This document shows positions 9,020-56,911 of a stretch of 58,928 bases of DNA, one piece after another. The translations under genes were made by a program, and so were the position numbers. Each line of letters begins with the position of its first letter. Positions within the stretch are counted from its first letter, which is position 1. The stretch comes from Thermoanaerobaculia bacterium (GTDB lineage: Bacteria > Acidobacteriota > Thermoanaerobaculia > UBA5066), in contig JBBRRY010000026.1 of NCBI GenBank assembly GCA_038245905.1, positions 1-58,928 on the forward strand, in the 5' to 3' direction. A model generated the notes under the pieces. It ran no database searches, was not told where the DNA came from, and saw nothing but the letters and a program-made list of their open reading frames with translations.

Positions 9020-9861
9020 CACGATTTCCGCGGCGTCGCGGCCGGCACGTTCAGGGTCGAGAGGACGCGCCCCGCGATCTCGCCGTATCCGTTCGCTCCT
9101 GGGTGGAACCGGTCTGAAGAGAGCCGGTCCGGCCGCTCGTCGAACACGTCGGACGTCGGGACGACGAGGGCGTTCGGGACGCCGAAGCTCGCCTCCTCCA
9201 GCGCGACGTTCCACTTCAGGAGCGTGCGCCGTGCCATCGTCCTGTCGAAGGTCGGGGGGAACGGGTTGTAAAGGCCGAGAATCCGGATGGGGGCAGAAGG
9301 ATTTTGCTTTCGGAGAAGAGCAAGAATCCTCTGAAGGTTGAGAGAGGATCCGGTGAGGGCCGCGGCCGTCGGATCTGCGGCCGTCTCGCCCGATCCCATG
9401 GCCGCCGGGATCGAGTGACTCAGGTCGTTGCCGCCGATCGACATGAGGATGAGCTGCGCCCCCGCAAGGCGGCGCTGAACGTCCGGGTCGGACACCTTTC
9501 TAAGCAACTCTCCCGTCTCCGCCCCGTCTACGCCGAGGTTCTCCACGGTGACGGTTCGCCCGTCTTTCCTGAGCGTAGCCGCGACGCGTTCCGGGTATCC
9601 GCCGCCGCCCGCCGTATCGCCCGCGCCGCGCGTCAAGGAATCACCGAGCGCGACGATGCGAAAGGCACCGCCTTCGGCCGTCGTGGCGGCGGCGGGCGAA
9701 AGCGCCGGGACGGGCGGCGCGGAAGGGGCCGAAGGATCCACCGGCTCGCCGAGCCGTCCCTGCAGCGCGGCGGCAAAGCCGGTGGCCAGGACGCCGGCGG
9801 TTGCGACACCGAGCGTGACGGGGACAAACCAGAGCAGGAGGCGGCGGGTGGCGCGTGTCAC
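9019..9861 (-). CDS. GDSL/SGNH hydrolase with N-terminal membrane anchor
   Basis: ALGDSLTRG, SIGGNDL, GLYNPF and DRFHPG motifs. Start at GTG 9861 is inferred. Confidence 0.88.
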   Translation of the reverse strand: MTRATRRLLLWFVPVTLGVATAGVLATGFAAALQGRLGEPVDPSAPSAPPVPALSPAAATTAEGGAFRIVALGDSLTRGAGDTAGGGGYPERVAATLRKDGRTVTVENLGVDGAETGELLRKVSDPDVQRRLAGAQLILMSIGGNDLSHSIPAAMGSGETAADPTAAALTGSSLNLQRILALLRKQNPSAPIRILGLYNPFPPTFDRTMARRTLLKWNVALEEASFGVPNALVVPTSDVFDERPDRLSSDRFHPGANGYGEIAGRVLSTLNVPAATPRKS

Positions 9862-9912
9862 GGAGCGGTATTCTGCCGGAAACGCGGTCGGCCGAGGGGC
9901 TAAGATCCTTTT

Positions 9913-10536
9913 GTGACTCCAGAACGGAGTGTGGATTCGGTTCTGCGTGAATCGGAGGCGTTTTTCGGAGGCCGTGGGGCCGTGCATCGGACGCTCCGGT
10001 CACTCGTCGAGAGGCTGGACGCCGAAGGAATCCCGTACGCGATCCTCGGCGGCATGGCTCTGAACATCCACGGCTTCGTCCGGGAGACCGTCGATGTCGA
10101 CGTCCTCATGACGGGGGAGTCGCTGGATCGCTTCCGCGAACGCCTGGTCGGACGAGGGTACGTTCTCGCGTTCCCCGGGGCGAAGAAGAGCTTCGAAGAC
10201 GTCGAGACCCGAGTGCGGATCGACGTCCTCGCTTCGGGGGAGTTCCCAGGCGACGGCAGGCCAAAGGAGATTTCCTTTCCGGACCCCGCTCTCATTGGCG
10301 TCGAACGGGGAGGGATCCGCGTCGTCCCGTTGGAGTTGCTGCTGGATCTCAAGCTGGCGTCCGGGCTCTCCGCCGAGCACCGCCGGCTCATCGACCTTGG
10401 CGACGTCCAGCGGACGATCGAGGCGCTTCGGCTGCCGCGCGATCTGGGCGAGCGACTCCACCCCAGCGTGAGGGCCGAGTACACCCGCCTGTGGGCGCTC
10501 GCCCAGCGAGCGGGCGAAGGTCCCGTCGAACGGTGA
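9913..10536 (+). CDS. Putative nucleotidyltransferase-fold protein
   Basis: YAILGGMAL..HG..R.T.DVDV motif, later LLLDLKL and DLGDV. Confidence 0.7.
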   Translation: MTPERSVDSVLRESEAFFGGRGAVHRTLRSLVERLDAEGIPYAILGGMALNIHGFVRETVDVDVLMTGESLDRFRERLVGRGYVLAFPGAKKSFEDVETRVRIDVLASGEFPGDGRPKEISFPDPALIGVERGGIRVVPLELLLDLKLASGLSAEHRRLIDLGDVQRTIEALRLPRDLGERLHPSVRAEYTRLWALAQRAGEGPVER

Positions 10537-11267
10537 GCGCTTCCGAGGTCGTCCTTTCCGCCGAGGGGCTCGCGAAGAGCTATGGCGACCGGGAGGTCGT
10601 CTCGGACGTGTCGTTCGCCCTCCACCGCGGCGAAGTGTTCGGATTTCTGGGGCCGAACGGCGCGGGCAAGACCACGACCATCCGGATGCTCGTCGGTCTC
10701 GTCCGGCCAACACGGGGCCGTGTCCTCATCGACGGGCACGAGCTCGCGACGGAGTTCGAGGCCGCGATGCGCAAGGTCGGCTGCATCGTCGAGACACCCG
10801 ACCTCTACAAGTTCCTCACGGGGCGCGAAAATCTCGAGCACTTCGCGCGGATGATCGGGGACGGCGCGGAGGGCCGGATCGACGAGCTTGCGCGCCTCGT
10901 CCACATGGACGAACGCCTCGACGGCCTCGTTCGAACCTTCTCCCTCGGAATGCGCCAGCGCATCGGCATCGCGCAGGCGCTGCTCTCCGATCCCGCCGTC
11001 CTGATCCTCGACGAACCCACGAACGGCCTCGATCCCGCGGGCATCCGCGAGATGCGCGAGCTCGTGCGGCGGCTCGCGGGCGAGCGCGGCCTCGCCGTCT
11101 TCGTCTCGAGCCACCTCCTCTCCGAGATCGAGAAGATGGTCGACCGGATCGCGATCGTCCACCGCGGACGCACGCTGGCGGCCGGGACGCTTCTAGAAGT
11201 GACGGACAACGGGGCGAAGTCGCTGGAAGACCTGTTCCTCGAAATGACGCGCGGGGAGACGGTGTGA
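10533..11267 (+). CDS. ABC transporter ATP-binding protein
   Basis: GPNGAGKTT, FSLGMRQR and LILDEPTNGLDP motifs. GTGA overlap. Confidence 0.95.
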   Translation: MSASEVVLSAEGLAKSYGDREVVSDVSFALHRGEVFGFLGPNGAGKTTTIRMLVGLVRPTRGRVLIDGHELATEFEAAMRKVGCIVETPDLYKFLTGRENLEHFARMIGDGAEGRIDELARLVHMDERLDGLVRTFSLGMRQRIGIAQALLSDPAVLILDEPTNGLDPAGIREMRELVRRLAGERGLAVFVSSHLLSEIEKMVDRIAIVHRGRTLAAGTLLEVTDNGAKSLEDLFLEMTRGETV

Positions 11268-11286: not shown

Positions 11287-12294
11287 ATGGCTGTGATGCT
11301 GGGGCTCGTCGAAAACGAGTGTTTGAAGATTCTTAGACGGAAGAGATTCCGCGTCGTCCTGATCGTGCTGGCCGCGCTGTTGTGCCTCGTCGTCTTTGCC
11401 CAGAACCGGCAGCAGCAGAACCAGCGAAAGGACCACCCGGAGCGCGACTGGCGTGCACAGGTCGAGAAGCGCGCGAGCGACCTCGAGCGGCAGATGAACC
11501 AGAGGCGGGGAATTCCGCAGCAGTGGAAACGCTGGATGCAGTACGAAGCGGGCCGCCTTCGCTTTCACCTTTCTAAGAATCTTGATCCGAGTCTCCTGAC
11601 CGGCCCAATGTTCACGCGGGCGTTCGCCGGCGTCGGTAGCGTGCTTCTGATCCCGCTCCTCGTGGCCGTGTTTGGAGCGGACCTCGTGTCGTCGGAATTC
11701 GCTGAGGGGACGATCACGCTGCTCCTGACGCGTCCCGTCGCGCGATGGAAGATTCTCGCGTCGAAGGCCATTGCGATGGTCCTCTTCACCACCCTCACGC
11801 TCCTCGCGGCGTTCTTCCTCGCGTGGGGGATCTCGGGCGTCGCGTTTGGCTGGTCCGGGTGGGAAGCGCCGATCCTGACGGGCTTTCGCCTCGGCGGTGC
11901 GTCCCCGTCCGCCGGCTTCGACCTTTCCGGTGTGCGCAGCGTGCCCCTCTGGCAGGACACCTTCGCGGCCTGGGGGCTCGCGTGGTTCTCGGCGCTGACG
12001 GTAGGCTCGATCACGCTGCTCCTCTCGGTCGTCTTCCGGTCAGCGGCCGCCGCGATGGGGACGATGATGGCGACGCTCGTGGGCGGCACGATCCTGTCGC
12101 GCGTCGCCTCCGACTGGGACGGCGCGAAGTGGTTCTTCGTGACGAACTTGCCGCTGCCGGACTACTACGCCGGCCTGCCGACGCCCTTCGAGGGAATGAC
12201 GTTGACCTTCTCGGCGTTGGTGCTTCTGGCGTGGGCGCTCGCCGCGTTGACGGCCGCGTTCCTCCTCTTCACCCGGCGCGACGTCACGGCGTAG
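11287..12294 (+). CDS. ABC-2 type transporter permease
   Basis: ADLVSSEFAEGTITLLLTRPVARWKILASK motif, multiple TM segments, C-terminal FTRRDV. Confidence 0.92.
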   Translation: MAVMLGLVENECLKILRRKRFRVVLIVLAALLCLVVFAQNRQQQNQRKDHPERDWRAQVEKRASDLERQMNQRRGIPQQWKRWMQYEAGRLRFHLSKNLDPSLLTGPMFTRAFAGVGSVLLIPLLVAVFGADLVSSEFAEGTITLLLTRPVARWKILASKAIAMVLFTTLTLLAAFFLAWGISGVAFGWSGWEAPILTGFRLGGASPSAGFDLSGVRSVPLWQDTFAAWGLAWFSALTVGSITLLLSVVFRSAAAAMGTMMATLVGGTILSRVASDWDGAKWFFVTNLPLPDYYAGLPTPFEGMTLTFSALVLLAWALAALTAAFLLFTRRDVTA

Positions 12295-18662: not shown

Positions 18663-20453
18663 GTGCCGAACCCGCTCCTGAACGACCGGGACATCTCGTT
18701 TCTCCTGTACGAGGTCTTCGACACCGCGTCGCTCCTCGCGCTCCCGCACTTCGCGGACCATTCGAGGGAGACGTTCGACGGCTACGTCGGCCTCTGCTCG
18801 CGGTTCGCCCGCGAATCGGTGTTTCCCGCGCTCAAGGCGGTGGACGAAGAGCCACCGAGGCTCGTGGACGGGCAGGTTCTCGCCCACGCGCGGCTCCACG
18901 ACATCTACCCGAAGATGCGCGCGATCGGCGTTTTCGCGGCGTCGAGGCCGTTCGACGTTGGCGGGCAGCAGCTGCCGCTGACGATCTCGACGGCGGCGCA
19001 CCTTTACATCATGGCCGCGAACCCGGCCGTCTACAGCTTCGCGGGCCTCTCGACGGGCGCGGCGCACTTGATCGAGGCGTTCGGAAACGAAGGCCTGAAG
19101 ACGCGTTACATGACGCCGCTCTACGAGGGGCGATTCTCGGGGACGATGGCGCTCACCGAACCGCATGCGGGCTCGAGCCTTGCCGACGTGGCGACCCGGG
19201 CGACGCCCGCGGGAGATCACTTCCTCCTGGCCGGAGCAAAGATCTTCATCTCCGGCGGTGATCACGACCTGACGGAGAACATCGTCCACCTCGTCCTCGC
19301 GAGGATCGAAGGCGCACCCGCCGGCATCAGGGGCGTGAGTCTCTTCGTCGTGCCGAAGCTCCGCGTCACGGAGAGCGGTCTCGTCCCGAACGACGTCCGC
19401 ATCTCGGGCCTCGTTCACAAGATCGGCTGGCGCTGCCTTCCGGCTGTTCTGCTGTCTCTCGGCGAGGCCGGCGACTGCCGCGGCTGGCTGGTGGGGGAGC
19501 CGCACCAGGGGATCTCCTACATGTTTCAGATGATGAACGAGGCGCGCATCTCGATCGGCGCCGACGGTGTCGGCAGCGCGTCCGCGGCGTATCACGAGAG
19601 CCTCGCGTATGCCGCCGGGCGCCCTCAGGGCCGGCCTGTCACGAGCAAGGATCCGCGGCTGCCGCAGGTCCCGATCCTCGAGCACGCGGACGTGCGCCGG
19701 ATGCTGCTGCGCCAGAAGGCGATCGTGGAAGGTGGGCTCGGGCTCGTCCTCCAGACCGCGCTCTACGCGGACCGCGCGCATCACGCTGCCGCGGAACCCG
19801 AGCGGCGGCACGCGCAGCTCCTCTTAGACCTCCTGACGCCGGTCGCGAAGAGCTTTCCGGCGGAGAGGGGCTTCGAGTCGAACACGCTCGCGCTGCAGAT
19901 CCACGGCGGCTATGGCTACACGAGCGAGTTTCTGCCGGAGGCGTGGCTGCGCGACCAGAAGCTGAACTCGATTCACGAGGGAACGACCGGGATCCAGGGT
20001 CTCGACCTCCTCGGACGCAAGGTGATGGCGAACGGCGGCGCGGCGCTGGTGGCGCTGGAAGAGGAAGTCGCCGCCGCCTGCCGGCGCGCAGACAGCGCCG
20101 GCGTCGAGCCCACGTGGGTGAGCGCCGTGCGCGAGGCCGGCGCGAGCCTGAACGCGCTGACCGGGGAGCTCGCGGCCCGGGGTCGCGCGGGCGACGCGGA
20201 GGGGTTGATCCGCCACTCGGCCGACTACCTGGAGCTCTTCTCGACGTATGCCGTGGCGTGGCAGTGGATCCTGCAGGCGGCGGCGGCGAAGGAAGGACTC
20301 GCGCGTGAAGCCGGGCCCCGGGACTTCTTCGAAGGGAAACTCGCGGCCGCGCAGTACTGGCTCCGGACGGAGCTGCCGAAGAACGCCGCGCTCGTCACAT
20401 TGTGTCGGGAGAACGAGGACAGCTACGCGCGGATGAAGCCGGGCTGGTTCTGA
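18663..20453 (+). CDS. Acyl-CoA dehydrogenase
   Basis: GTMALTEPHAGSSL, KIFISGG, MFQMMNEAR, QIHGGYGY and IHEGTTGIQ motifs. Confidence 0.95.
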   Translation: MPNPLLNDRDISFLLYEVFDTASLLALPHFADHSRETFDGYVGLCSRFARESVFPALKAVDEEPPRLVDGQVLAHARLHDIYPKMRAIGVFAASRPFDVGGQQLPLTISTAAHLYIMAANPAVYSFAGLSTGAAHLIEAFGNEGLKTRYMTPLYEGRFSGTMALTEPHAGSSLADVATRATPAGDHFLLAGAKIFISGGDHDLTENIVHLVLARIEGAPAGIRGVSLFVVPKLRVTESGLVPNDVRISGLVHKIGWRCLPAVLLSLGEAGDCRGWLVGEPHQGISYMFQMMNEARISIGADGVGSASAAYHESLAYAAGRPQGRPVTSKDPRLPQVPILEHADVRRMLLRQKAIVEGGLGLVLQTALYADRAHHAAAEPERRHAQLLLDLLTPVAKSFPAERGFESNTLALQIHGGYGYTSEFLPEAWLRDQKLNSIHEGTTGIQGLDLLGRKVMANGGAALVALEEEVAAACRRADSAGVEPTWVSAVREAGASLNALTGELAARGRAGDAEGLIRHSADYLELFSTYAVAWQWILQAAAAKEGLAREAGPRDFFEGKLAAAQYWLRTELPKNAALVTLCRENEDSYARMKPGWF

Positions 20454-40318: not shown

Positions 40319-40840
40319 ATGACGAAGAAGCTGGACCTGACTCGACTCGACCTCCAGGACGCCCTCGATATCGCCATCCTCGTCGAACAGGAGGCCATGG
40401 AGCGTTACGAGGAGCTGGCCGCGCAGATGCGGTCGACCCACACGGACGAGGCCGCGTTCTTTTTTCACTTTATGGCGAAGATGGAAGCCAAGCACGGAGC
40501 CGACCTTCTCGCCGAGCGCGCGAAGAGCTTCGGGAAGGCGCCCAGGCGCGTCGACCGCTCGCTGCTCTGGGACGTGGAAGCCCCCGGTTACGAGACCGTC
40601 CATGCGTTCATGACGCTCCGCGAAGCCCTCAAGGTGGCCATGGACGCCGAAGTGAAGGCTTGGGAGTACTTCGACGGGGCCCTGAAGCTTCCCCTGAGTC
40701 CGCCCGTGAAGAAGCTCTTCGAGGAGCTGCGCGCGGAAGAGGTCGTCCATCAGGACATGGTCAGGAGCGAGCTCGCGAAGGCCCCCGCCGATTCCGCCGC
40801 GGCCCCCGAGGATTTCGCCGACGAGCCGGTGGCCCAGTAG
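40319..40840 (+). CDS. Ferritin-like/rubrerythrin family protein
   Basis: Paired E...ExxH di-iron motifs (EQEA, EAKH, EVKA, EVVH). Confidence 0.85.
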   Translation: MTKKLDLTRLDLQDALDIAILVEQEAMERYEELAAQMRSTHTDEAAFFFHFMAKMEAKHGADLLAERAKSFGKAPRRVDRSLLWDVEAPGYETVHAFMTLREALKVAMDAEVKAWEYFDGALKLPLSPPVKKLFEELRAEEVVHQDMVRSELAKAPADSAAAPEDFADEPVAQ

Positions 40841-40852
40841 AGTTCAGAGTTC

Positions 40853-41749: not shown

Positions 41750-41822
41750 TGCGTGATTCTAGAGGCAGGAGCCGCCGCGCTAGACTTCGCGGGGTCCGGG
41801 CCGCGGTCCGGCGGAGGTTGCT

Positions 41823-43334: not shown

Positions 43335-43337
43335 CGC

Positions 43338-45128: not shown

Positions 45129-45179
45129 GGCGCCTCTTGCACACGGCTGAGAATGCTTCGCTCCAGATTCCCCGTACAT

Positions 45180-45259
45180 TGTGGATAGACCCCCCGTAAA
45201 CATCTGCTGCAGAATGGCTTATTAGATTTCAACGGATCTGTGGAAAAGCCTGTGTGTTT
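45180..45259. promoter_or_regulatory. DnaA-box-like sites in an AT-richer intergenic region
   Basis: TGTGGATAG (45180-45188) and TGTGGAAAA (45239-45247) each differ by one base from TGTGGATAA. A weak tandem copy TGTGTGTTT sits at 45251-45259. Confidence 0.4.
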
Positions 45260-45373
45260 CGCCGCAAAAACGGCCCCGAAGCGGCGTCTTTACATGGTTT
45301 TTTCCGCCTCGCACAGATGCTTGTGCAGGCGCCCGATTCCCGACGTTTACGGCTTTGGTATCGTGCGATTTCG

Positions 45374-45895
45374 ATGACGTTACGTTCGTATCGCGGCGTT
45401 TCTCCGAGGCTCGGCGCCCGCGTCTTCATCGCGCCGACCGCAGCGGTCATCGGCGACGTCGTTCTGGGAGACGACGTCTCGATCTGGTTCTCCTCCGTCG
45501 TGCGGGGGGACTGCTGCCATATCCGGATCGGCGCGCGTTCGAACGTGCAGGACAACTGCACTCTCCACGTGACGAACACGACAGGTCCCCTCACCCTCGA
45601 GGAAGAAGTCACGCTCGGGCACAACGCGGTCGTTCATGCCTGCACGATCCGCCGGGGCGCGCTCATCGGCATGAACGCCACGGTCCTGGACGGCGCCGAC
45701 GTCGGGGCGAGCGCGCTCGTGGCCGCTGGCTCCGTGGTGCTTCCCGGCACCGTGATTCCACCCGCCACGCTCTGGGCAGGAAACCCCGCCAAGAGGAAGC
45801 GCGACCTCGCGCCGGTCGAGGTCGAGGAGCTGAAGACCTACTGGAAGAATTACCTCGAGTACAAGGCGGAATACCTCCGCGCCGAGCCGTCGTGA
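45374..45895 (+). CDS. Gamma carbonic anhydrase family protein
   Basis: IGDVVLG, VVRGD, SNVQDNCTLH and GHNAVVHAC hexapeptide repeats. Confidence 0.93.
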   Translation: MTLRSYRGVSPRLGARVFIAPTAAVIGDVVLGDDVSIWFSSVVRGDCCHIRIGARSNVQDNCTLHVTNTTGPLTLEEEVTLGHNAVVHACTIRRGALIGMNATVLDGADVGASALVAAGSVVLPGTVIPPATLWAGNPAKRKRDLAPVEVEELKTYWKNYLEYKAEYLRAEPS

Positions 45896-47169
45896 TCGCG
45901 AGCGTGAAGGGAACGCGGGACCTCCTCCCGCCCGAGACACGAGTCTGGAACCGCGTCGAGACCATCGCGCGCGAAGTCTTCGCGCTCTACGGGTTCGACG
46001 AGATCCGGACGCCGGTTCTCGAGTCGACGGAGCTCTTCGTGCGGAGCGTGGGGGAGTCGACCGACATCGTCCACAAGGAGATGTACACGTTCACGGACCG
46101 CGGCGAGAGGTCCGTGACGCTGCGCCCCGAGAACACGGCGGGCGTCGCGCGCGCCTACGTCGAGCACTCTCTCGCGCAGGCGGGCCGGCCCTGGAAGCTT
46201 TTCTACATGGGGCCGCAGTTTCGTTACGAGAGGCCGCAGAAGGGCCGGTACCGCGAGTTCCGGCAGATCGGGGCGGAGGTGCTCGGCGACCCCGAGCCGA
46301 TCGTCGACGCGGATCTCATCGGGATGCTCTTCGATTTTCTGGGAAAACTTGGATTCAAGGATCTTTCGCTTTCACTGAATTCCGTGGGTACCGAAGCCAC
46401 GCGGCCGGCGTACGTCGATGCCGTACGGTCGTTTTTTTCTTCGAACGAGAATGTGGGAACGCTTGGCGAAGACGACCGGCGGCGCCTCGCCGACAACCCG
46501 ATGCGCGTTCTCGATTCCAAGGACCCCGCGGTGAAGCTGCTCATCGCGTCCAGCTCTTTTCCGAAGATGGTCGATCTTCTTCCTGCGCTCGATCCGGCCT
46601 CAGACGCGCACCACCGCGAGCTCATGCTGCTCTTGCGAAACGCCGCGGTCCCTTTCAAAGAAGATCCTCTCCTCGTCCGGGGGCTCGACTACTACACCCG
46701 CACGGTTTTCGAGGTGACGGCCGGGGGACTCGGCTCCCAGAACGCGCTTCTCGGCGGCGGGCGATACGACAAGCTGGTGTCCGACCTCGGCGGCCCGAAG
46801 ACGCCTGGAATCGGCTTCGCGATTGGCGAGGACAGGCTCGTGGAAGTGCTCCCAGAGCCTTTTCGGCGGGCGGCGCTCGAGGCGACACGCCCCGTGGCCG
46901 TCGTGCCGGTCGGAAGCCCCGACATGCACGAGGCGTTCGCGGTTGCGGCCGAGCTGCGCCGAGAAGACGTCGGCGTTGATCTCTTCTCTGGCCACCGCGG
47001 CCTCGGCTCCGCGCTGAAGGCGGCGGAGAAGGCGGGTATCGTGCTCGCCGTTCTAGTCGGCCAGAACGAGACCGTCCGCGGTGCCGTCGTCGTGAAAAAC
47101 CTCGCGACGCGGTCTCAGGAAGAGCTGCCGAGGGAGGGCCTCGCCGACGTGCTCCGGGCACGTCTGTAA
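45892..47169 (+). CDS. hisS: Histidine--tRNA ligase
   Basis: KGTRDLLP, LRPENTA, FRYERPQKGRYREF, LVRGLDYYT and GGGRYD motifs. Confidence 0.97.
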   Translation: MIASVKGTRDLLPPETRVWNRVETIAREVFALYGFDEIRTPVLESTELFVRSVGESTDIVHKEMYTFTDRGERSVTLRPENTAGVARAYVEHSLAQAGRPWKLFYMGPQFRYERPQKGRYREFRQIGAEVLGDPEPIVDADLIGMLFDFLGKLGFKDLSLSLNSVGTEATRPAYVDAVRSFFSSNENVGTLGEDDRRRLADNPMRVLDSKDPAVKLLIASSSFPKMVDLLPALDPASDAHHRELMLLLRNAAVPFKEDPLLVRGLDYYTRTVFEVTAGGLGSQNALLGGGRYDKLVSDLGGPKTPGIGFAIGEDRLVEVLPEPFRRAALEATRPVAVVPVGSPDMHEAFAVAAELRREDVGVDLFSGHRGLGSALKAAEKAGIVLAVLVGQNETVRGAVVVKNLATRSQEELPREGLADVLRARL

Positions 47170-47180
47170 GATCCGCGGCC

Positions 47181-48944
47181 ATGTCCGCTGCCTCACGCAT
47201 CCCCGCCGGGACACTCCGGCCTGAGAACGTCGGCGAGACCGTGCGCCTCATGGGCTGGGTCAACCGCCGCCGCGACCACGGCGACCTCGTCTTCATCGAC
47301 CTCCGCGACCGTTCGGGTCTCACTCAGGTCGTTTTCAACGCCGAGTTCCTCGGAGACCCCGCCGTGCTCGCGCTCGCGAAGGAGCTCCGGAGCGAGTTCG
47401 TGGTGGACGTGACGGGGACCGTCCTCGCCCGCGGCGAAGGCGCTGTCAATTCCGACCTGCCGACGGGCGGGGTCGAGGTGCGCGCGACGGCCCTCGCGAT
47501 CCTGAACCGCGCGGACACTCCACCATTTCCGATCGAGGACGGGATCAAGGCCTCCGAGGACCTGCGTCTCAAGTACCGTTACCTGGACCTCCGCCGGCCC
47601 GAGATGACGAGGAAGTTCGTCGTGCGAAGCGAAGTCACGATGGCCGTCCGCGGGGTCCTGCACGAAGAAGGCTTCCTCGACGTGGAGACTCCGATCCTCA
47701 CGAAATCGACACCGGAGGGCGCCCGCGACTTTCTCGTTCCCTCGCGGGTCCACCCGGGCGAGTTCTACGCCCTCCCGCAGTCTCCCCAGCTCTTCAAGCA
47801 GCTCCTCATGGTCTCGGGGATGGAACGCTACTACCAGATCGCGCGCTGCTTCCGCGACGAGGACCTTCGGGCCGACCGGCAGCCCGAGTTCACGCAGGTC
47901 GACATCGAGATGTCGTTTCCGACGGAGGAGATGGTCTACACGCTCGTCGAGAAGATCTTCACGCGCGTATTTCCGGCGTGGGGAATCGCTTGTGAGTCGC
48001 CGTTCAAGCGGATGACGTACGACGAGGCCCTGGAGCGCTTCGGGATTGACCGGCCGGACACGCGCTTCGGGCTTGAGCTTGGGGATTTCGAGGGGCTCGA
48101 AGAGAAGATTTCTTCGAAGGTGGAAAGAGTGAAGGGCCTGTGCGTGCCGGGGGGCGCCTCGTTCTCCCGCAAGCGCCTCGACGACATCGAAAAGGGGGCG
48201 CGGGCGGCGGGAGTGGAGTGGTTCTTCTGGGTGAAAACGGCCGCGGCCGGCAGCTGGAATTCCAATTCAAAGAAATTCTTCGACGACGCGTCGGTCGAGC
48301 GCATGTGCGCCTCGTTTGGCGCGGGCGAGAGTGACGTTGTCTTCCTGGCTGCTGGAAAGACCAGGAACGTTCTCGACTTCCTCGGCGCCCTGCGCCTTCA
48401 GATCGGCCGTGAGGAGAAATTGATTCCCGAGGGCCGCCACGACTTCCTCTGGGTGACGGACTTCCCGCTCCTCGAGTGGCACGAGGAGGACGCGCGATGG
48501 TACGCGACGCACCACCCCTTCACATCGCCGCGCGAGGAGGACCTTCCGTTCCTCGAGAGTGAGCCCGGGCGCGTGAAATCGCGCGCCTACGACGTCGTCC
48601 TGAACGGGATGGAGCTCGGGGGCGGCTCGATCCGGATCCACCGGCCCGACGTCCAGTCGCGCATCTTCTCGAGACTCGGGATCGGCGAAGAGGAAGCGCG
48701 CGCGAAATTCGGCTTTCTCCTCGATGCGTTCCGCTTCGGTGCTCCGCCGCACGGAGGAATCGCGCTCGGACTCGACCGCATCCTCATGATCCTGACCGGT
48801 TCGTCTTCCATCCGCGACGTCATCGCGTTCCCGAAGACGGCCTCCGCGTCGGATCTCATGACGGAATGCCCGAACCCCGTGGCGCCCGAGCAGCTCGCCG
48901 AGCTGCACATCGCGCTCGCGAATCCACCGAAGACCGGGGGCTGA
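47181..48944 (+). CDS. aspS: Aspartate--tRNA ligase
   Basis: RRDHG, TPEGARDFLVPSR, FRDEDLRADRQPEFTQ and APPHGGIALGLDR motifs. Confidence 0.97.
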   Translation: MSAASRIPAGTLRPENVGETVRLMGWVNRRRDHGDLVFIDLRDRSGLTQVVFNAEFLGDPAVLALAKELRSEFVVDVTGTVLARGEGAVNSDLPTGGVEVRATALAILNRADTPPFPIEDGIKASEDLRLKYRYLDLRRPEMTRKFVVRSEVTMAVRGVLHEEGFLDVETPILTKSTPEGARDFLVPSRVHPGEFYALPQSPQLFKQLLMVSGMERYYQIARCFRDEDLRADRQPEFTQVDIEMSFPTEEMVYTLVEKIFTRVFPAWGIACESPFKRMTYDEALERFGIDRPDTRFGLELGDFEGLEEKISSKVERVKGLCVPGGASFSRKRLDDIEKGARAAGVEWFFWVKTAAAGSWNSNSKKFFDDASVERMCASFGAGESDVVFLAAGKTRNVLDFLGALRLQIGREEKLIPEGRHDFLWVTDFPLLEWHEEDARWYATHHPFTSPREEDLPFLESEPGRVKSRAYDVVLNGMELGGGSIRIHRPDVQSRIFSRLGIGEEEARAKFGFLLDAFRFGAPPHGGIALGLDRILMILTGSSSIRDVIAFPKTASASDLMTECPNPVAPEQLAELHIALANPPKTGG

Positions 48945-49014
48945 AGAAGGATTTCTTTGTTCGGAAGAAGAGAAGAAAGAAGATTTTCTTAGAAGGTGAA
49001 GACAAGAGGGGAGG
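48945..49014 (+). repeat. Purine-rich intergenic copy of the dispersed GATTTTCTTAGAAGG motif
   Basis: GAAGAAGAGAAGAAAGAA-GATTTTCTTAGAAGG-TGAAGACAAGAGGGGAGG. The 15-mer at 48982-48996 is identical to 35122-35136. Confidence 0.7.
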
Positions 49015-49019
49015 ATCGC

Positions 49020-50156
49020 GTGGGCAGGGCTAGGCCTCTTTCCTCCTTTTCGTTCGAGGCGGCCGGCGCCAGGACCGATGTCCTTGTCGGCCCCGGCGCG
49101 CTCCTCTCCCTCGGCGCGCACCTCGGCCGCATCGCGCCCGGCCGCTGGTTTCTCATTACCTCTAAGAAAATATTCCGACTGCATGGCTCTTCGTTGTTTG
49201 CTGGAGGCGTTGAGAGGGTCTTAAGCAAAGATCCCCTCTTCGTCCCCGACGGCGAAGCCGCAAAGACATGGACCGTTCTCGGGGGGTTGCTCGAGGAGTT
49301 GATGCGGTGCGGCCTGCGCCGCGACGGAGGAATCGTCGCGCTGGGCGGCGGCACGGTCGGCGACGTGGCCGGCCTCGCGGCGGCGCTCGCTCTGCGCGGC
49401 GTCCCAGTCGTCCAGGCGCCGACGACGCTCCTCGCGGCCGCCGACAGCGCCCTTGGCGGAAAGACGGCCGTAGATCTTTCCTCCGGCAAGAATCTCGTGG
49501 GAGCCTTCCATTCGCCGCGGCTCGTTGTCGTCGACACGAGAACGCTCGAGACGCTTCCCCTCCGCGCGTTCCGGTCGGGCCTCGCGGAGGTCGTGAAGAC
49601 GTCCTTTCTCGACGCGGGATTCAACCGCGCAATGGCGCGTCTCGAAAGGCCTTTAGCCTCGCGCGAGGCCGCTGCAGTGACAGAGGCCATACGCCGCTCT
49701 CTCGTCGTCAAGGCGCGAGCCGTGGCGCGGGATCCGTTCGAACGGACGGGGGAGAGAGCGGCCCTGAATCTCGGCCACACGGTGGGCCACGCCCTCGAGA
49801 CGGCGTCGGGCCATCGATTGCAGCACGGCGAGGCCGTGGCCTGGGGGCTGCTCGCGGCCCTGCGTCTTTCCGTCGCGCGCGCGCGGCTCGCGCCTGGTGT
49901 GGCCGACGCGCTCGCGCGGCGCGTCATGACGCTCGTGTTGCCGCCTGTCCCTTCCGCGGCTGCGGTGCGCGGTATGCCGGATCTCCTCGCGGGCGACAAG
50001 AAGGCCGATCGTGCCGGCCTCAACGCCGTGCTCCTCGCCGGGCCGGGCGGGCCGATGCTCGTGAGGGTCGAGAGGGCCGAGCTCGCGGGGGCATTCGAAG
50101 AGGCGTTGGGGCGCTACAATAGGGTCGGATGGGTGTCGCCCGGGTTCCACGCCTGA
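49020..50156 (+). CDS. aroB: 3-dehydroquinate synthase
   Basis: GGGTVGD, PTTLLA..DS..GGKT, KNLVGAF, NLGHTVGHALE and HGEAV motifs. Start is 49020 or 48996. Confidence 0.92.
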   Translation: MGRARPLSSFSFEAAGARTDVLVGPGALLSLGAHLGRIAPGRWFLITSKKIFRLHGSSLFAGGVERVLSKDPLFVPDGEAAKTWTVLGGLLEELMRCGLRRDGGIVALGGGTVGDVAGLAAALALRGVPVVQAPTTLLAAADSALGGKTAVDLSSGKNLVGAFHSPRLVVVDTRTLETLPLRAFRSGLAEVVKTSFLDAGFNRAMARLERPLASREAAAVTEAIRRSLVVKARAVARDPFERTGERAALNLGHTVGHALETASGHRLQHGEAVAWGLLAALRLSVARARLAPGVADALARRVMTLVLPPVPSAAAVRGMPDLLAGDKKADRAGLNAVLLAGPGGPMLVRVERAELAGAFEEALGRYNRVGWVSPGFHA

Positions 50157-51859
50157 GGATCGTGACGGCTCTGCTCGTCGCGCTGATCCTCGTTTCCATC
50201 GTCCCGCTCGCCCTTCTCCACTTCAGCCTCATCGGCATCAACCGGGATGCCCTCGAGACGGCCGAAAAAAAGTACCTGAAGAACAGCTCGGTGACGCTCG
50301 CAGACAGCTTCGACACGTACATCACGAACGCCCAGTCGCAGCTCAAGAAGATCGCCGACGGGATCCGGCTGGCGAGCTCGATGTCCACGGATCCCTTCTT
50401 CTACCTGTCCAAGAAGCAGCTCCTGAGGGAGTATTCCGACGCCGAGTCGAGCTTCCCGGTCCTCCGGGCTCTCGATCGGGACGGCGTCGCCTCGGCGGCC
50501 GACGAAGGCGCCCTGGACCCGGACGTCGAGCGCCCGCTCCGGCAGGCCTACAACGCCGCGATGCGGGGCGAGTCCTACGTGGCCGATCCGATCTTCCCGA
50601 AGTCCTATCCGGACGGCGCGCTCGTTCTCGCCGTGCCCGTGAGACCCTCGGAGGGCCAGCAGCCAATCGGCGTCGTCGAGGCCCTGCTCTCCCTCAAGCC
50701 GATCAAGGCAAAGCTGGACGAAGAAGGGCGGGGCGGCGTCCTCGCCTATGTCGTGGACCGCTCCGGCTCTTTGATCCTGACGAGCGATGCCTCGGCTTTC
50801 CGCTCGAAAGACGTGCATCAGCTCGATCTCGTGAGCGAATTTATCGCGCATCCCGTGAGGATCACGAAGTCGTACATGCGCGGCGAGGGGAAGACGGCGC
50901 GCCGCGTCCTCGGAACCCTCGCGACGATCCCGACGCCCGACTGGGGCGTCATCGTCGAGAAAGACGAAGCGGCGGCCTTTGCCTCGGTCTCTCAGATGAA
51001 GAAAGAGACCACTAAGATCGCCGTGTTTTCGCTCCTCTTCGCGGCGCTCGTCGCTCTCGTCGCGGCGCGCCTCCTGGCGCATCCCCTCGTCGAATTGGTC
51101 GAGAAGGTGCGGTCGATTGCGGAGGGCAGCTTCAAGCAGCGCGTCGAGGTACGGGGCGTCCGGGAGTTCGCCGAGCTGTCCGAGACGTTCAACTCGATGT
51201 CCGACTCGATCGAGAGGTCGGTCGACAAGCTCAAGCTCGCGGCCAAGGAGAACCAGGAGCTGTTTATCAACTCGGTGCGGACGCTCGCGGCCGCCATCGA
51301 CGCGAAGGATCCCTACACCCGTGGCCACTCGGAGCGGGTCGCGCGCTACGCCGTCGTTCTTGCGCGCCACATGGATCTCTCGCCCGAAGAGGTGCGTGTC
51401 GTGCGGTTGTCGGCCCTCCTCCACGACGTGGGAAAGATCGGCATCGACGACCGCATCCTCCGGAAGCCCACGGCCCTCACGAGCGAGGAGTTCGAGATCA
51501 TGAAGACGCACCCGGCCAAGGGAGCGATCATCATGGGCCAGATTCCACAGCTCAAGGACGTGATTCCGGGGATCAAGCACCACCACGAAAAATGGTCGGG
51601 CGGCGGCTATCCGGACGGACTGAAGGGCGAGGGTATCCCGATGGTCGCGCGGGTCGTGGCCGTGGCGGACACGTTCGACGCCATGACGACGACCCGTCCC
51701 TATCAGAAGGCGATGCCCCTCAACTACGTCATCACGCAGATCATTTCGTTTGCCGGAAAGTCGTTCGACCCCGCCGTGATCGCGGCGCTCGACAAGGCGT
51801 GGAATTCCGGCGACTTCGAGTTCCTGGGTGAAGAGGTTCCCCTGAAGGCATCCGCTTGA
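50129..51859 (+). CDS. Membrane sensor HD-GYP phosphodiesterase (Cache-like + HAMP + HD-GYP)
   Basis: Two TM segments, a HAMP region, DPYTRGHSERV, LHDVGKIG and HHEKWSGGGYPDG motifs. Confidence 0.92.
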   Translation: MGVARVPRLRIVTALLVALILVSIVPLALLHFSLIGINRDALETAEKKYLKNSSVTLADSFDTYITNAQSQLKKIADGIRLASSMSTDPFFYLSKKQLLREYSDAESSFPVLRALDRDGVASAADEGALDPDVERPLRQAYNAAMRGESYVADPIFPKSYPDGALVLAVPVRPSEGQQPIGVVEALLSLKPIKAKLDEEGRGGVLAYVVDRSGSLILTSDASAFRSKDVHQLDLVSEFIAHPVRITKSYMRGEGKTARRVLGTLATIPTPDWGVIVEKDEAAAFASVSQMKKETTKIAVFSLLFAALVALVAARLLAHPLVELVEKVRSIAEGSFKQRVEVRGVREFAELSETFNSMSDSIERSVDKLKLAAKENQELFINSVRTLAAAIDAKDPYTRGHSERVARYAVVLARHMDLSPEEVRVVRLSALLHDVGKIGIDDRILRKPTALTSEEFEIMKTHPAKGAIIMGQIPQLKDVIPGIKHHHEKWSGGGYPDGLKGEGIPMVARVVAVADTFDAMTTTRPYQKAMPLNYVITQIISFAGKSFDPAVIAALDKAWNSGDFEFLGEEVPLKASA

Positions 51860-55094: not shown

Positions 55095-55103
55095 GATCAC
55101 GGG

Positions 55104-55772
55104 GTGTTTACCGGCCTCATCTCCGCCGTCTCGCGGGTCGTGTCGCTCGGGACCGGGACGGCGGGCGCCGTCCTCACCGTAGAGCGCCCGCCGGAATTCG
55201 GGGACGTGTCCGTGGGGGAGAGCATCGCTGTCTCGGGAGTCTGTCTGACGGTCGTGCCCCCGGCGGCTCCCGGCCAGCCGCTCCATTTCGACGTCTCGCC
55301 GGAGACGCTCTCGCGTTCGGCCCTTGGGGGGCTGTCTGCGGGCGCCGGCGTTAATCTCGAGCGCGCGCTCCGCGCCTCCGACCGTCTCGGCGGCCACGTC
55401 GTCGCCGGCCACGTGGATGGAACGGCACAGGTGCTCGGAGCCGCGAGGTCTGGCGACTCGTGGACATTCACGTTCTCGCTGCCCGGGGCGCTGGCCCGGT
55501 ACGCAGTCGAAAAGGGCTCGATTTCAGTCGACGGAATTTCCCTCACGATCGCCGGGCTCCGCGAGGGGAGTTTCGACGTGGCCGTGATTCCGCATACATT
55601 CGAGTCGACGACGCTCGGCGAGCGCAAGCCGGGCGACCGCGTGAACCTCGAAGTCGACGTTCTCGGAAAGTACGTCGAGCGGCTCCTCGTGGCGCCACTC
55701 GGGGACGATGGCGCCAGAGAGCGCATAGAACGCGACGAGCGCCTCGAGCGGCTCCTGACGAACGGCGCGTGA
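55104..55772 (+). CDS. ribE: Riboflavin synthase (alpha chain)
   Basis: MFTGLI, GESIAVSGVCLTV, VNLERAL, GGHVVAGHVD and VNLEVD motifs. Confidence 0.95.
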   Translation: MFTGLISAVSRVVSLGTGTAGAVLTVERPPEFGDVSVGESIAVSGVCLTVVPPAAPGQPLHFDVSPETLSRSALGGLSAGAGVNLERALRASDRLGGHVVAGHVDGTAQVLGAARSGDSWTFTFSLPGALARYAVEKGSISVDGISLTIAGLREGSFDVAVIPHTFESTTLGERKPGDRVNLEVDVLGKYVERLLVAPLGDDGARERIERDERLERLLTNGA

Positions 55773-56911
55773 ACGAGTCCCGGTCGCCGGGCGCGTACGT
55801 GCACGTTCCCTTCTGCGCGCACCGCTGCACGTATTGTTCATTCATTGCTTTGGAGGGGAGAGGAGAAGAAGAAGATTTCTTTGAAGGCTTAGGGAGGGAG
55901 ATTCGCTCGAGGCGGACCGAAGCGACGGGTGTCCTGCGCGACTTCGACACCGTTTACTTCGGGGGGGGAACACCGAGCTACGTCGAAACGACGCACCTTC
56001 GCCGGGTGCTCGGGACACTCGAAGAAGTCTTCGGAATTTCTTCGAATGCCGAGATCACGGCCGAAGCAAATCCCGACGACCTCGATGTTCCCCGGCTTCT
56101 GGCCCTCCGGGACCTGGGCGTCAATCGCCTCTCGATCGGTGTGCAGTCCCTCGTCGATGCCGAGCTCGTGCCTCTCGAACGTCGCCACGACGCCGCCGCC
56201 GCGCGCGGTACGGTGTCCTCGGCCGTCCGCACTTTCGGCAACGTCTCGGCCGACCTCATGATCGGCATCCCCGGGCAAACCCTGCGCAGTCTTCTCGAGA
56301 GCGTCGACGGGCTCGTCGTGTGCGGAATCTCCCACCTTTCGGTCTACCTCCTGGAGCTCGAGAAGGCCCCGCGCCTCGTTTCCATGAAGAAGGAGCGGCC
56401 GGAGCTGTTCCCGGACGACGACGAGATGGCGGACCGCTGGGAGGCCGTGGACGAGCGCCTGACGGCGGCGGGCCTCCCGCGCTATGAGCTTTCGAACTGG
56501 GCGCGGCCGGGGTTCGAGAGCCGCCACAACCTCAAGTACTGGCACCTGATTCCCGTGCTGGGGTTTGGCGTCGGGGCGCATTCGTTCGACGGGAAGACTC
56601 GTTATGCGAACACGGGAATGTTGTCCGAGTACCTGAAGCGCACGCGGGAAGGCGTCTCGCCCGTCGTGACGTCCGAAGAGCACGAGGAGGATTCTCTTAG
56701 AAAAAGGGAGGGACTCATGCTGGGCCTGCGCCTCTCGTGCGGTGTCCTCTCTTCAACCTTCAAAGAGATCCGAAAAGGTCTCTCTCCCGATTCCGCCAGC
56801 CGCATGGAGGATGCGTTCGTCGCCCGGCTGCTCGAAGAGCATGCTGGGCGCGTACGACTCACGCGCAAGGGCGTGCTGCTGTCGAACGAGGTCTTTTCGC
56901 TGCTGGTCTGA
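55769..56911 (+). CDS. hemW: Radical SAM heme chaperone (HemW/HemN-like)
   Basis: YVHVPFCAHRCTYCSF, GGGTPS, YELSNW and SRHNLKYW motifs. Confidence 0.9.
   Translation: MNESRSPGAYVHVPFCAHRCTYCSFIALEGRGEEEDFFEGLGREIRSRRTEATGVLRDFDTVYFGGGTPSYVETTHLRRVLGTLEEVFGISSNAEITAEANPDDLDVPRLLALRDLGVNRLSIGVQSLVDAELVPLERRHDAAAARGTVSSAVRTFGNVSADLMIGIPGQTLRSLLESVDGLVVCGISHLSVYLLELEKAPRLVSMKKERPELFPDDDEMADRWEAVDERLTAAGLPRYELSNWARPGFESRHNLKYWHLIPVLGFGVGAHSFDGKTRYANTGMLSEYLKRTREGVSPVVTSEEHEEDSLRKREGLMLGLRLSCGVLSSTFKEIRKGLSPDSASRMEDAFVARLLEEHAGRVRLTRKGVLLSNEVFSLLV

Follow-up and report, generated by a model that had tools for sequence, protein, structure and literature searches.

What kind of signal could be written over unrelated, conserved genes, and what would read it? 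The question is raised by short GA/CT-rich patches with atypical codons in a 58,928-nt stretch of DNA (the window) from a Thermoanaerobaculia bacterium. The host is an uncultured bacterium of soil and sediment. The original prediction listed 19 copies of a motif with a core close to TTC-N3-GAA and suggested that they form a genome-wide signal. All 19 strings were found in the window, each at its listed position and on its listed strand. An excess over shuffled sequence was also found, with 11 copies of GATTTTCTTAGAAGG (up to three mismatches) in the window versus 0.42 expected and a maximum of 2 among 100 shuffles. Using a weight matrix of 21 columns trained on genome-wide sites, with reversed sequence as the control, we detected 18 motif copies, here called arms, in the window at 12 bits or more versus 2 in the control, and 15 versus 0 at 15 bits or more. 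Fifteen of the 19 listed copies score at least 12 bits as arms and two (9324+ and 56690+) score 9.2 bits at places where a partner is expected. The other two, 43975+ and 46333+, were unsupported (5.3 bits and below 3 bits). Three arms (46431+, 48260-, and 56032+) lie beyond that list.

Across the 3.8-Mb genome, TTAGAAGG is the most over-represented 8-mer (129 observed versus 48 expected, z 15.7). A regular-expression (regex) family of the motif had 308 genomic matches versus 23 in the control, and nhmmer returned 339 arms at E≤1 (approximately 340 per genome) versus 10 in the control, giving an enrichment of 13-fold (regex family) to 34-fold (nhmmer) and a density of about one arm per 11 kb. 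Each arm is asymmetric, 30-45 nt long, and runs from a purine tract through the core GATTT(T)CTTAGAAGG to TGAAGAGGG. The purine tract is variable and a TTCGGA box is often found at its opening. The motif as a whole is of low complexity and rich in purines or pyrimidines.

The TTC-N3-GAA word had been taken as the unit, which overlooks that the arms occur in convergent pairs. Neighbouring arms no more than 600 bp apart in the nhmmer set were oriented +- in 84 cases, ++ in 11, -- in 7, and -+ in 1, and neighbouring arms at loci of other genomes were +- in 52 cases and -+ in 2. Distances between arms in convergent pairs or clusters range from 32 to 540 bp (mode 74-79 bp), and in larger clusters all plus arms lie to the left of all minus arms almost without exception. 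A degenerate partner was present on the inner side of 79 of 162 apparently lone arms and on the outer side of 2. Convergent pairs or clusters of asymmetric arms, and not lone TTC-N3-GAA words, are the functional unit. We know of no system that has this paired layout inside genes.

The host genes in the window are unrelated housekeeping genes encoding a GDSL lipase, an ABC-2 permease, an acyl-CoA dehydrogenase, an S15 peptidase, RecN, HisRS, AspRS, DHQ synthase, a HemN-like protein, and alanine racemase (Alr). In the GDSL lipase gene (9019-9861, minus strand) a weak plus arm at 9321-9341 (9.2 bits, string confirmed, no nhmmer match at E≤50) is the expected partner of the minus arm at 9492-9512 (28.8 bits, E 0.37). 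The plus arm at 11324-11344 (16.7 bits) in the ABC-2 permease gene (11293-12294, identified with Pfam) is partnered at a distance of about 241 bp by a minus arm at 11565-11585 (28.4 bits, E 0.061). A further pair straddles an intergenic gap: its plus arm (20319-20339, 24.5 bits, E 0.13) lies in the acyl-CoA dehydrogenase gene, at the 3' end, and its minus arm (20539-20559, 13.2 bits, string confirmed) lies where the S15 peptidase gene starts. In the HisRS gene, the plus arm at 46431-46451 (16.9 bits), which was not among the 19 copies, is a likelier partner than 46333 for the minus arm at 46648-46668 (26.9 bits, encoding PFKED). The AspRS gene contains a plus arm at 48104-48124 (31.7 bits, EEKISSKV), located in a variable region that shows no net insertion, and a minus arm at 48260-48280 (20.5 bits, E 4.6) that encodes NSKKFF over a conserved KF. 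The best plus arm of the window, an exact match to the consensus at 48980-49000 (37.1 bits), is intergenic and lies 20 nt upstream of the GTG start codon of the DHQ synthase gene; its partner is a minus arm within that gene at 49154-49174 (12.2 bits, ITSKKIF), so that the pair straddles the start codon. A degenerate intergenic box upstream at 48947-48967 (plus strand, E 16) is in tandem with it and scores within the control range (6.8 bits). The HemN-like gene has a plus arm at its 5' end (55871-55891, 27.7 bits, E 0.042), for which no strong partner was found. This gene has a second plus arm at 56032-56052 (14.4 bits), and the minus arm near its 3' end at 56753-56773 (17.5 bits) has a weak plus arm as its expected partner about 65 bp away at 56688-56708 (9.2 bits, string confirmed).

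Four arms lie in the alanine racemase gene. Site 1 (34985-35005, plus strand, 25.4 bits) encodes FLEG(G/E)EG, has about two residues more than solved Alr proteins in an alignment to PDB sequences, and is retained in the loci of 17 of the 19 species scanned. Site 2 (35120-35140, plus strand, 31.5 bits) encodes RIFLEG over a conserved LILEG and is also found in the sister genus. Site 3 (35198-35218, minus strand, 25.9 bits) encodes TFEEIL, and in another clade of the genus a plus arm (IFLEG) occupies its position. Site 4 (35299-35319, minus strand, 32.6 bits) encodes PPSKKSS and a pyrimidine tract; it is an in-frame insertion of about nine residues that varies in length and is present in the sister genus. 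Sites 2 and 3, the AspRS arms, and the HisRS arm (compared with E. coli HisRS) align to solved homologues without indels. Judging from such alignments, most genic arms arose by substitution over conserved residues (Alr, AspRS, HisRS) without an indel, and some are small in-frame insertions.

Approximately three quarters of all arms lie in coding sequence, on both strands and in every frame. In the regex family, 124 arms are on the strand of the gene and 115 on the opposite strand, with all phases used. The three frames and both strands are thus used nearly equally, so that protein sequence does not explain the motif, as proposed. The proposal of a genome-wide signal is also supported, either in DNA itself or in a nucleic acid whose two strands are read identically. 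In the frames where the central A would create TAG or TAA, it was present in 0 of 32 and 0 of 39 arms, versus 44 of 45 and 51 of 69 in the other frames. The central TTA is replaced by TTT or TTC wherever it would give a stop codon.

The geometry of the pairs means that a transcript crossing them in either direction meets the purine arm before the pyrimidine arm. The arms could thus act in RNA, by pairing or by binding an RNA-binding protein, to control mRNA decay, translation, or termination. The purine arm resembles both a Shine-Dalgarno sequence and an (ARN)n motif, CTTAGAAAGG is exactly complementary to the 16S 3' region CCUUUCUAAG, some plus arms lie immediately upstream of start codons, and the arms pair in predicted folds. 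Short-spaced intergenic pairs sit between genes, some of them convergent, and recall the terminators formed by uptake-sequence pairs as described in the excerpted text of PMC1852404. Against this, folding energies were not better than those of shuffled sequences (z +0.3 to -0.9), most pairs lie deep within coding sequence and would form loops of 40-500 nt, lone arms had no preference for the strand of the gene (124 versus 115), and no Rfam family matched in the window. No covariation was seen between the arms of a pair (similarity of 27.5 within pairs versus 27.1 between pairs, p 0.11), and on the mRNA strand there was no bias for G.U over A.C (102 versus 100). These last two results indicate that the arms are recognised individually and not as a hairpin. 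An element acting in RNA is therefore unlikely.

The positions are conserved in relatives. Between species with 70-90% nucleotide identity, position and orientation were retained at 75 of 104 alignable sites, with an identity of 0.79 in the core versus 0.63-0.65 directly inside the arm. Most of 19 species (63-88% protein identity) retain the four Alr sites together with their rare TTA and GAA codons. The 12-mer of the motif occurs in all 28 genomes of the genus (21-210 copies each, a tenfold range). In the sister genus, 7 of 8 genomes have it (1-16 copies each), and there the consensus and pairing are identical and the density is about one third. The 12-mer was found in none of 27 genomes from eight other genera and none of 16 from two other families.

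The low complexity of the motif and the seven weak matches at 9 bits or more in the reversed control of the window could point to chance, composition, or an artefact of assembly. This was rejected, with a probability close to nil, by the 13- to 34-fold enrichment, the occurrence of one word across two genera, some of whose genomes are in very few contigs, the orthologous positions between species, and the finding that 0 of 226 contig ends in genome G000 are near an arm.

We considered whether the arms are the ends of elements moved by a transposase or recombinase, which could be relics resembling MITEs or Rickettsia palindromic elements, sites of a domesticated transposase, or inverted repeats of an invertible segment. 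The arms face inward, at times two or three per side, as in the multi-site ends of Tn7 and Mu, and the spacing of 30-500 bp is the size of a MITE. Copy number varies tenfold. Clean indels of 29-45 nt separate species at some arms (3 of 28, judged by eye), and therefore insertion or deletion occurs too. Rickettsia palindromic elements are selfish DNA repeats inserted in frame as whole units of 100-150 bp; they resemble the arms in being tolerated within essential genes at orthologous positions, and some arms are likewise in-frame insertions, but here two arms flank native coding sequence, mostly without an indel. Between the arms lies the conserved sequence of the host gene (Alr, AspRS, HisRS) rather than cargo, and paired arms are not copies of each other. 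Neither a RAYT nor a DDE_3 transposase was found in G000, and neither a multi-copy element of at least 300 bp nor a parent IS was found. Inversion of the segments would wreck Alr, AspRS, or HisRS; a contig of X1 covers all four Alr arms colinearly, and the strand changed in 0 of the 15 joints listed out of 166, a count from contigs, in which rare forms may escape. Such ends are thus quite unlikely, and the original suggestion of a relic repeat conflicts with the conserved residues under most genic arms and the positions maintained between species.

The loci number about 240, or one per 15 kb, with near-random placement (2.83 per 40 kb, variance 3.29), and GC content dips locally to about 0.60 at each versus 0.68 for the genome. 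These features, along with conserved positions, strict dyad symmetry, and a spacing preference near 75 bp, could reflect a nucleoid-structuring or topology-setting site, at which an abundant DNA-binding protein or topoisomerase complex would bind or wrap a dyad of about 120 bp, written into genes because intergenic space is scarce in this genome. The BIMEs of enterobacteria, whose mode of action would be the model, have comparable copy number and bind gyrase. REP, BIME, and REPIN sequences also occur as hundreds of dispersed copies in inverted doublets at long-stable positions. However, each REP is a hairpin outside genes and REPIN doublets, whose spacing is fixed, replicate as units, whereas most arms here are genic, with variable spacing and host sequence inside. 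The RAYT associated with such repeats is absent from G000, and only 3 of the 24 genomes examined in the genus have one. The tenfold range in copy number is odd for an essential architectural role, the spacing is uneven with Poisson-like counts, and no histone-fold protein was found in G000. Pair distances had no 10.5-bp periodicity (power 0.39), which disfavours rigid looping by a protein. We know of no binder of these dyads. A nucleoid site is therefore doubtful, although a chromosome-organising site and an uptake-like sequence, both raised originally, are each possible.

We favour, with a probability of roughly 0.4, the reading that each patch is one arm of a lineage-specific dyad signal in DNA, which is read in pairs by a putative factor and evolves like uptake sequences. 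The unit would be two arms, at times three or four, with the GGTGAAGAGGG side facing inward, a favoured centre-to-centre distance of about 75 bp, and a tolerance of about 30-500 bp. We infer that a protein reads the arms. This putative sequence-specific factor, limited to the genus and its sister genus, would recognise each arm separately and act on inward-facing pairs by bridging them or by travelling inward from each. New arms would come about mostly in situ by point substitutions at sites already like the motif, and selection or transmission bias would then retain them within the limits of the host protein. No recognising factor was found, and the lack of 10.5-bp periodicity, the indels at some arms, and the tenfold range in copy number also speak against this reading. 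The genome encodes ComEC, DprA, and a ComEA-like protein, but competence genes are almost universal and have no discriminating value.

Among known roles, a tag of own DNA for uptake or recombination would fit the evolutionary behaviour best, and DNA uptake signal sequences share the mode of origin proposed for the arms. The USS of Pasteurellaceae and DUS of Neisseriaceae are likewise the most over-represented word of their genomes, lineage-specific, equal on both strands, and present in all frames of coding sequence by substitution rather than insertion, two origins that the excerpted text of PMC1626085 tests for USS in coding sequence. The excerpts of PMC1852404 report at least 1,000 copies of uptake sequences, a +- bias of close pairs that is lost beyond about 30 nt, and intergenic pairs at terminator-like places. 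The arms differ in being longer, with a variable purine tract, and about tenfold less dense than in those excerpts. The +- rule here reaches about 500 bp and extends inside genes, which uptake does not explain.

The original prediction did not recognise parS, matS, KOPS, or a known DUS, and we agree. Chi, KOPS, parS, Noc, SlmA sites, and matS are short words, often genic, that a protein of the chromosome machinery recognises. Chi and KOPS have a replichore skew, whereas the 12-mer is equal on both strands (38 forward versus 38 reverse) and its orientation rule is local. Sites of the parS type are single palindromes in few to some tens of copies, in contrast to about 340 asymmetric arms. HIP1 (GCGATCGC) of cyanobacteria is, like the arm, a lineage-wide word; the excerpted text of PMC5861425 describes it as hyper-abundant and selected, with a function that was obscure for decades. 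According to excerpts of PMC5861425 and PMC4390886, it is a perfect 8-bp palindrome linked to methyltransferases and may exceed one copy per gene, whereas the arm is long, asymmetric, far rarer, and arranged in oriented pairs.

The original prediction was of a dispersed AT-rich motif with 19 copies on both strands of the window and in unrelated genes. All 19 strings are present at the predicted coordinates and on the predicted strands, and the window genes that carry the motif are indeed unrelated housekeeping genes. The window has a G+C content of 63-70% throughout. The 15-mer GATTTTCTTAGAAGG, allowing up to three mismatches, occurs in it 11 times against 0.42 expected, and the maximum was 2 in any of 100 dinucleotide-preserving shuffles of the window. 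We scanned the window with a weight matrix built from genome-wide sites and used the reversed window as the control, which is conservative because the motif is nearly mirror-symmetric. At 12 bits or more there were 18 copies of the motif (hereafter arms) in the window and 2 in the control, and at 15 bits or more there were 15 and 0. By this measure 15 of the 19 predicted copies scored at least 12 bits, those at 9324+ and 56690+ scored 9.2, and those at 43975+ and 46333+ were unsupported (+ arms have the purine-rich strand on top and - arms are the reverse). The matrix also found arms absent from the prediction at 46431+, 48260- and 56032+.

The enrichment extends to the whole genome to which the window, contig C26, belongs (G000; 3.80 Mb in 113 contigs, 67.8% G+C). 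No 8-mer of G000 is more over-represented under a maximal-order Markov model than TTAGAAGG (129 copies against 48.4 expected, z 15.7), and the related words TAGAAAGG, AGATTTCT and TTCTTTGA are likewise near the top of the ranking. A regex family found 308 sites in G000 and 23 in the reversed genome, and an nhmmer model at E<=1 found 339 arms and 10 in the control. The 12-mer TTTCTTAGAAGG is balanced between strands, with 38 forward and 38 reverse copies. An assembly artefact was rejected, as none of the 226 contig ends lies within 150 nt of an arm (3.9 expected).

Alignment of the 129 TTAGAAGG sites gave an arm consensus with information content spanning about -22 to +16 around this word. From the outside inward, an arm consists of a variable purine tract of GAAGAG type, often headed by a TTCGGA-type box, followed by GATTT(T)C, TTAGAAGG and (T/G)GAAGAGGG. 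Sites were also accepted with TTT or TTC in place of the central TTA, with GAAAGG in place of GAAGG or with TTGC in place of TTTC. By eye, arms have neither -35/-10 nor sigma-54 promoter spacing.

The prediction treated the copies singly and missed the main point, which is that the unit is a pair of inward-facing arms with the + arm on the left and the - arm on the right. Among neighbouring arms up to 600 bp apart in G000, nhmmer gave 84 +-, 11 ++, 7 -- and 1 -+ neighbours, and the regex gave 66, 6, 7 and 2, respectively. Simple arithmetic for 339 randomly placed arms predicts about 18 neighbours in total, or 4-5 of each kind. The 162 arms without a neighbour follow the same geometry, since a degenerate opposite-strand match of at least 10 bits occurs on the inner side of 79 and on the outer side of 2. 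In larger clusters (++-, +--, +++-, ++--), all + arms nearly always lie to the left of all - arms; this rule was broken in 3 of 298 cases at E<=10 (-+-, +-+- and +--+) and in 0 of 248 at E<=1. Other assemblies (79 loci, 600 kb) gave 52 +-, 3 --, 2 -+ and 2 ++ neighbours. A replichore-polar signal such as Chi or KOPS was rejected because arm numbers are equal on the two strands and orientation alternates locally within pairs.

In the window, +/- loci lie at 9321/9492, 11324/11565, 20319/20539, 46431/46648, 48104/48260, 48980/49154 and 56688/56753. The alanine racemase gene (Alr) contains a ++/-- locus (34985 and 35120 / 35198 and 35299), and + arms occur at 55871 (and 56032). At 48979-48984, where the best arm has its purine tract and T-run, contigs from three sequencing runs (X2-X4) revealed a related strain with small indels, and in a fourth run (X1) the summed contig depth was 4-5 times that of neighbouring positions, as a multi-copy word should give. 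Loci extend over 200-300 bp, in which G+C falls to about 0.60 and the top strand turns from purine-rich to pyrimidine-rich. Paired arms have their centres 32 to about 540 bp apart, with a sharp peak at 70-79 bp (28 of 136 pairs) and no 10.5-bp periodicity that would indicate helical phasing (power 0.39). There are about 236 loci in G000, one per 15 kb, and their numbers per 40 kb are near Poisson (mean 2.83, variance 3.29, 63 bins), with no regional clustering along the chromosome.

Coding sequence was called with a crude codon-statistics caller made for this analysis, by which 93% of G000 is coding; the coding location of arms was confirmed against homologues for Alr, AspRS and HisRS. Called coding sequence contains 239 of the 308 regex sites; of the rest, 64 fall between genes and 5 cross the end of one. 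Sites in genes use all three phases, are distributed uniformly along the gene, and are divided between the strand of the gene (124) and the other strand (115). A single coding sequence holds both arms in 61 of the 84 pairs. Another 13 pairs have both arms in intergenic DNA, 6 are of mixed location and 4 involve two genes. At the shortest distances (32-47 bp), every pair is intergenic apart from one with an arm inside a gene. The 32- and 35-bp pairs are between gene ends, one of the two between convergent genes, as likewise is a 74-bp pair. The central base bends to the protein code. Among intergenic sites, 51 of 69 have a central A (TTA); in the frame in which an A there begins an AGA codon, 44 of 45 do. 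A central A is present in 0 of 32 sites in frames giving TAG and 0 of 39 in frames giving TAA, which have T or C there instead. These zeros arise because open frames were called; the telling point is that arms still occur in the stop-making frames, in substitute form.

We then aligned host proteins to solved homologues to look for indels at the arms. Alr sites 2 (RIFLEG over LILEG) and 3 (TFEEIL) and the HisRS arm at 46648- have no indel, and both AspRS arms are in alignable sequence with no net insertion. Alr site 1 has about two extra residues and site 4 (PPSKKSSLLSSL) has an insertion of about nine. Two paralogous Ser/Thr kinase-like genes (contigs C11 at 59937 and C25 at 29582) carry a pair on the VLP..F.....RF.REA and Y.F.E region, which we judged by eye to be conserved. 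Most in-gene arms were thus made by substitutions to rare codons (TTA, GAA, ATT, AGA); a minority are short in-frame additions. In the kinase-like paralogues of G000 (C11 59937-60028 and C25 29582) and of a relative (G053, C1 376084 and 253732), arms occupy the same place on VLP.(D/K)F(L/F)E....RF, so that protein-family conservation and the DNA motif may reinforce each other here.

Arm positions are largely conserved between species. Of 199 arms from other assemblies, 95 had no spanning alignment and 104 could be aligned to G000 at 70-90% nucleotide identity. Among the latter, 75 had a G000 arm in the same place and orientation, 1 had one in the opposite orientation and 28 had none called. 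Most of these 28 face a degenerate remnant at the same place, and clean 29-45-nt indels, judged by eye, account for 3. Nucleotide identity reached 0.79 in the core but was lower outside it, at 0.73 for the far flanks and 0.63-0.65 immediately inside the arm.

For Alr, 28 of 29 genomes of the genus yielded the gene. Its four sites lie at the same codons in 19 full-length orthologues with 63-88% protein identity, in which TTC TTA GAA GG(G/T) GAA GAG GGG is largely intact. Site 4 is absent in one species and site 2 was lost in several; the 1.5-kb flanks of Alr were free of arms at all 18 loci that gave hits. At site 3, one clade has a - arm (ACC TTC GAA GAA ATC) and the other clade a + arm (ATT TTC TTA GAA GGT). 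This site falls between the + and - groups, where either state satisfies the orientation rule. The sister genus has only sites 2 (+) and 4 (-), with a weak TTCGAAG proto-site at position 3 and TTT GTT GAG AAG at position 1 in place of the TTC TTA GAA GGG of the own genus. Arms therefore accumulate stepwise at sites that are already motif-like; Alr has two in the sister genus and three or four in the own genus. The pyrimidine tract of site 4 (window 35310-35345; loci L002-L019) encodes a serine-rich run that varies in length by up to about nine codons between species, behaving like a slippage-prone simple repeat inside an essential gene. In five few-contig assemblies (G006, G008, G018, G003 and G007; loci L023, L024/L030, L026/L029, L027 and L028), the Alr match is split between frames or has an in-frame TGA, with break points near residues 88, 140 and 170-188, near arms. 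In three fragmented assemblies (G043, G042 and G023) the match begins at residue 86-87. Either indel errors at the low-complexity arms or true variation could explain the breaks.

To determine the taxonomic range we counted TTTCTTAGAAGG across relatives; the backwards control gave 0-3 copies per strand. The word is in 28 of 28 genomes of the own genus (21-210 copies) and 7 of 8 of the sister genus (1-16 copies), and is absent (0 copies) from all 27 genomes of eight other genera of the family and all 16 of two other families of the order. The last tally includes one unpublished assembly (G025), a single zero, and no result depends on that genome by itself. Within 400 kb of one sister-genus genome, 13 arms were found at E<=1 and none in the control. 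These arms have the same consensus, form six convergent pairs and are about one-third as dense as in G000, so they are the same word in thinner use and not another dialect. An exact 20-mer, searched in one genome per prokaryote species, occurred in 102 stretches. Among the 80 listed, 79 are in assemblies labelled Acidobacteriota, Acidobacteria or Thermoanaerobaculia and 1 is in an Erysipelotrichaceae assembly. Viral contigs had no match to one degenerate 21-mer, a weak test that covered the four-T form. For metagenomic binning and classification, the motif is a sharp marker of this lineage. In contig C2 of one relative (G020), among the 100 of 133 places listed, the first 775 kb contain 39 copies of the 12-mer and the stretch from about 1.35 to 1.73 Mb contains 1 in about 0.4 Mb; this sparse stretch could be an accessory region or near the terminus.

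We compared the arms with several kinds of mobile or repeated element. A REP or REPIN system was rejected. REP or REPIN elements lie outside genes, which 239 of 308 sites in called coding sequence do not, and their associated RAYT protein (PF01797) had 0 matches in G000 and was found in 3 of 24 genomes of the genus. By contrast, RAYT is in 11 of the 16 other-family genomes, all without the motif. A MITE or transposon was rejected because the DNA between arms is the host's own conserved coding sequence in Alr, AspRS and HisRS. Self-BLAST of G000 identified no multi-copy element of at least 300 bp that could be a parent IS; it gave eight two-copy matches of 300-919 bp, most at contig ends. Searches of G000 for two families, the DDE_3 transposase and the histone fold, found neither. 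We checked for inversion or excision in contigs of runs X1-X4 over 34000-50500, from which rare forms may drop out. No strand changes occurred among the 15 joints listed of 166, and the short sides of the listed skips measured 20-40 nt, as is usual for other organisms or repeats. One contig of X1, the probable source run, passes colinearly through all four Alr arms. An inverton is thus not evident from contigs, in which rare forms could be missed, and inverting parts of Alr, AspRS or HisRS would presumably be lethal. We consider it very unlikely that the arms are transposase or recombinase ends, and unlikely that they are a nucleoid or topology site.

The arms of a pair could also act as RNA. 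They are 70% complementary, predicted folds pair them, and their central bases agree in 37 of 66 pairs, modestly above the roughly 25 expected. However, the complementarity arises because both arms resemble the consensus, and fold energies are ordinary (z +0.3 to -0.9). Arms of one pair gave 27.5 compared to 27.1 for arms of different pairs (p 0.11), showing no co-variation, and sense-strand wobble pairs (102) matched antisense ones (100), showing no mRNA-strand bias. On these grounds a co-evolving hairpin was rejected and an RNA element of any kind is distinctly unlikely; no known RNA family matched in the window. The pair comparison and the central-base count also led us to reject a template-switch origin or co-evolving arms.

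Four features together point to a trans-acting factor that would read each arm by sequence and act jointly on inward-facing arms. They are the long asymmetric consensus, the same in two genera; the match of each arm to it independently of its partner; the strict local orientation rule, kept by newly gained arms; and the tolerance of 30-500 bp with an optimum near 75 bp and no helical phasing. Such a factor might link the two arms through a complex that is flexible or wraps DNA, or travel inward from each of them.

Our leading reading, with a probability of roughly 0.4, is a DNA dyad read by a factor, which would most likely serve as an own-DNA tag for uptake or recombination. In its evolution the motif resembles uptake sequences (USS and DUS). 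It is a lineage-specific over-represented word, equal on both strands, and lies in genes mostly by substitution and in all frames; indels were seen instead at Alr site 4, partly at site 1 and in 3 of the 28 between-species differences. As with USS, arms are born by substitution at proto-sites in every frame with stop codons avoided, orthologous positions are stable and copy number differs between relatives. G000 contains ComEC, DprA and a ComEA-like gene. These competence genes are present in most bacteria and are not discriminating. One USS study (PMC1626085) asked the same question of substitution or insertion, in a section headed 'USS are not insertions'. Another (PMC1852404) puts uptake sequences at 1,000 or more copies per genome and describes a +- bias and terminator use for close USS and DUS pairs. 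The motif differs in having about 340 arms in 3.8 Mb, below about 1,000 or more and at roughly tenfold lower density, and in a +- rule that reaches far past the approximately 30 nt reported there for USS, and does so inside genes.

It is possible, though doubtful, that the arms belong to a categorically new system. Its lineage-specific factor would be loaded at the asymmetric arms and would act on a pair only when it faces inward, bridging the two arms or tracking from both toward each other. The arms would then mark some 240 short segments inside housekeeping genes, in a recognition code laid over the protein code and extended stepwise, with new arms following the orientation of their neighbours. 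If true, bacteria would offer an example of convergent sites that are paired and work as a unit within genes, unlike anything among uptake sequences, REP elements, transposon ends or partition sites.

A lineage-specific DNA word written over genes is known, from USS, DUS and HIP1 as far as the available descriptions go; the paired, oriented, intragenic layout is not known. Literature searches on Thermoanaerobaculia repeats and on over-represented coding-region inverted repeats gave no description of the motif, and no known class of dispersed bacterial DNA signal accounts for the strict inward-facing geometry. The motif amounts to a second code over the protein code in hundreds of housekeeping genes of widespread, uncultured Acidobacteriota (Thermoanaerobaculia), and the rare-codon patches in arm-bearing genes should not be taken as errors. 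Finding the reading factor would provide a new DNA-recognition system, be it a tag for uptake or recombination, a site in chromatin or a protein domesticated from a mobile element, and a clean case of a signal born by substitution and growing within a lineage.

We also noted a similarity between the arm and ribosomal RNA. No arm was found at 16S ends by nhmmer, and a pre-16S processing stem as the master copy was rejected, as only the GAAAGG-form matrix scores the 16S tail. In two relatives (G011, locus L173; G020, locus L174), the right half of the arm in this form, CTTAGAAAGG, is the exact complement of CCUUUCUAAG, which comes after the anti-Shine-Dalgarno CCUCC in the 16S 3' end. Scored as a - arm, the tail reached 11.0 bits in G011 and 1.3 bits in G020, near the 99th percentile or above for random 80-nt windows. 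Chance between purine-rich sequences may explain this complementarity, or it may hint at binding by the ribosome.
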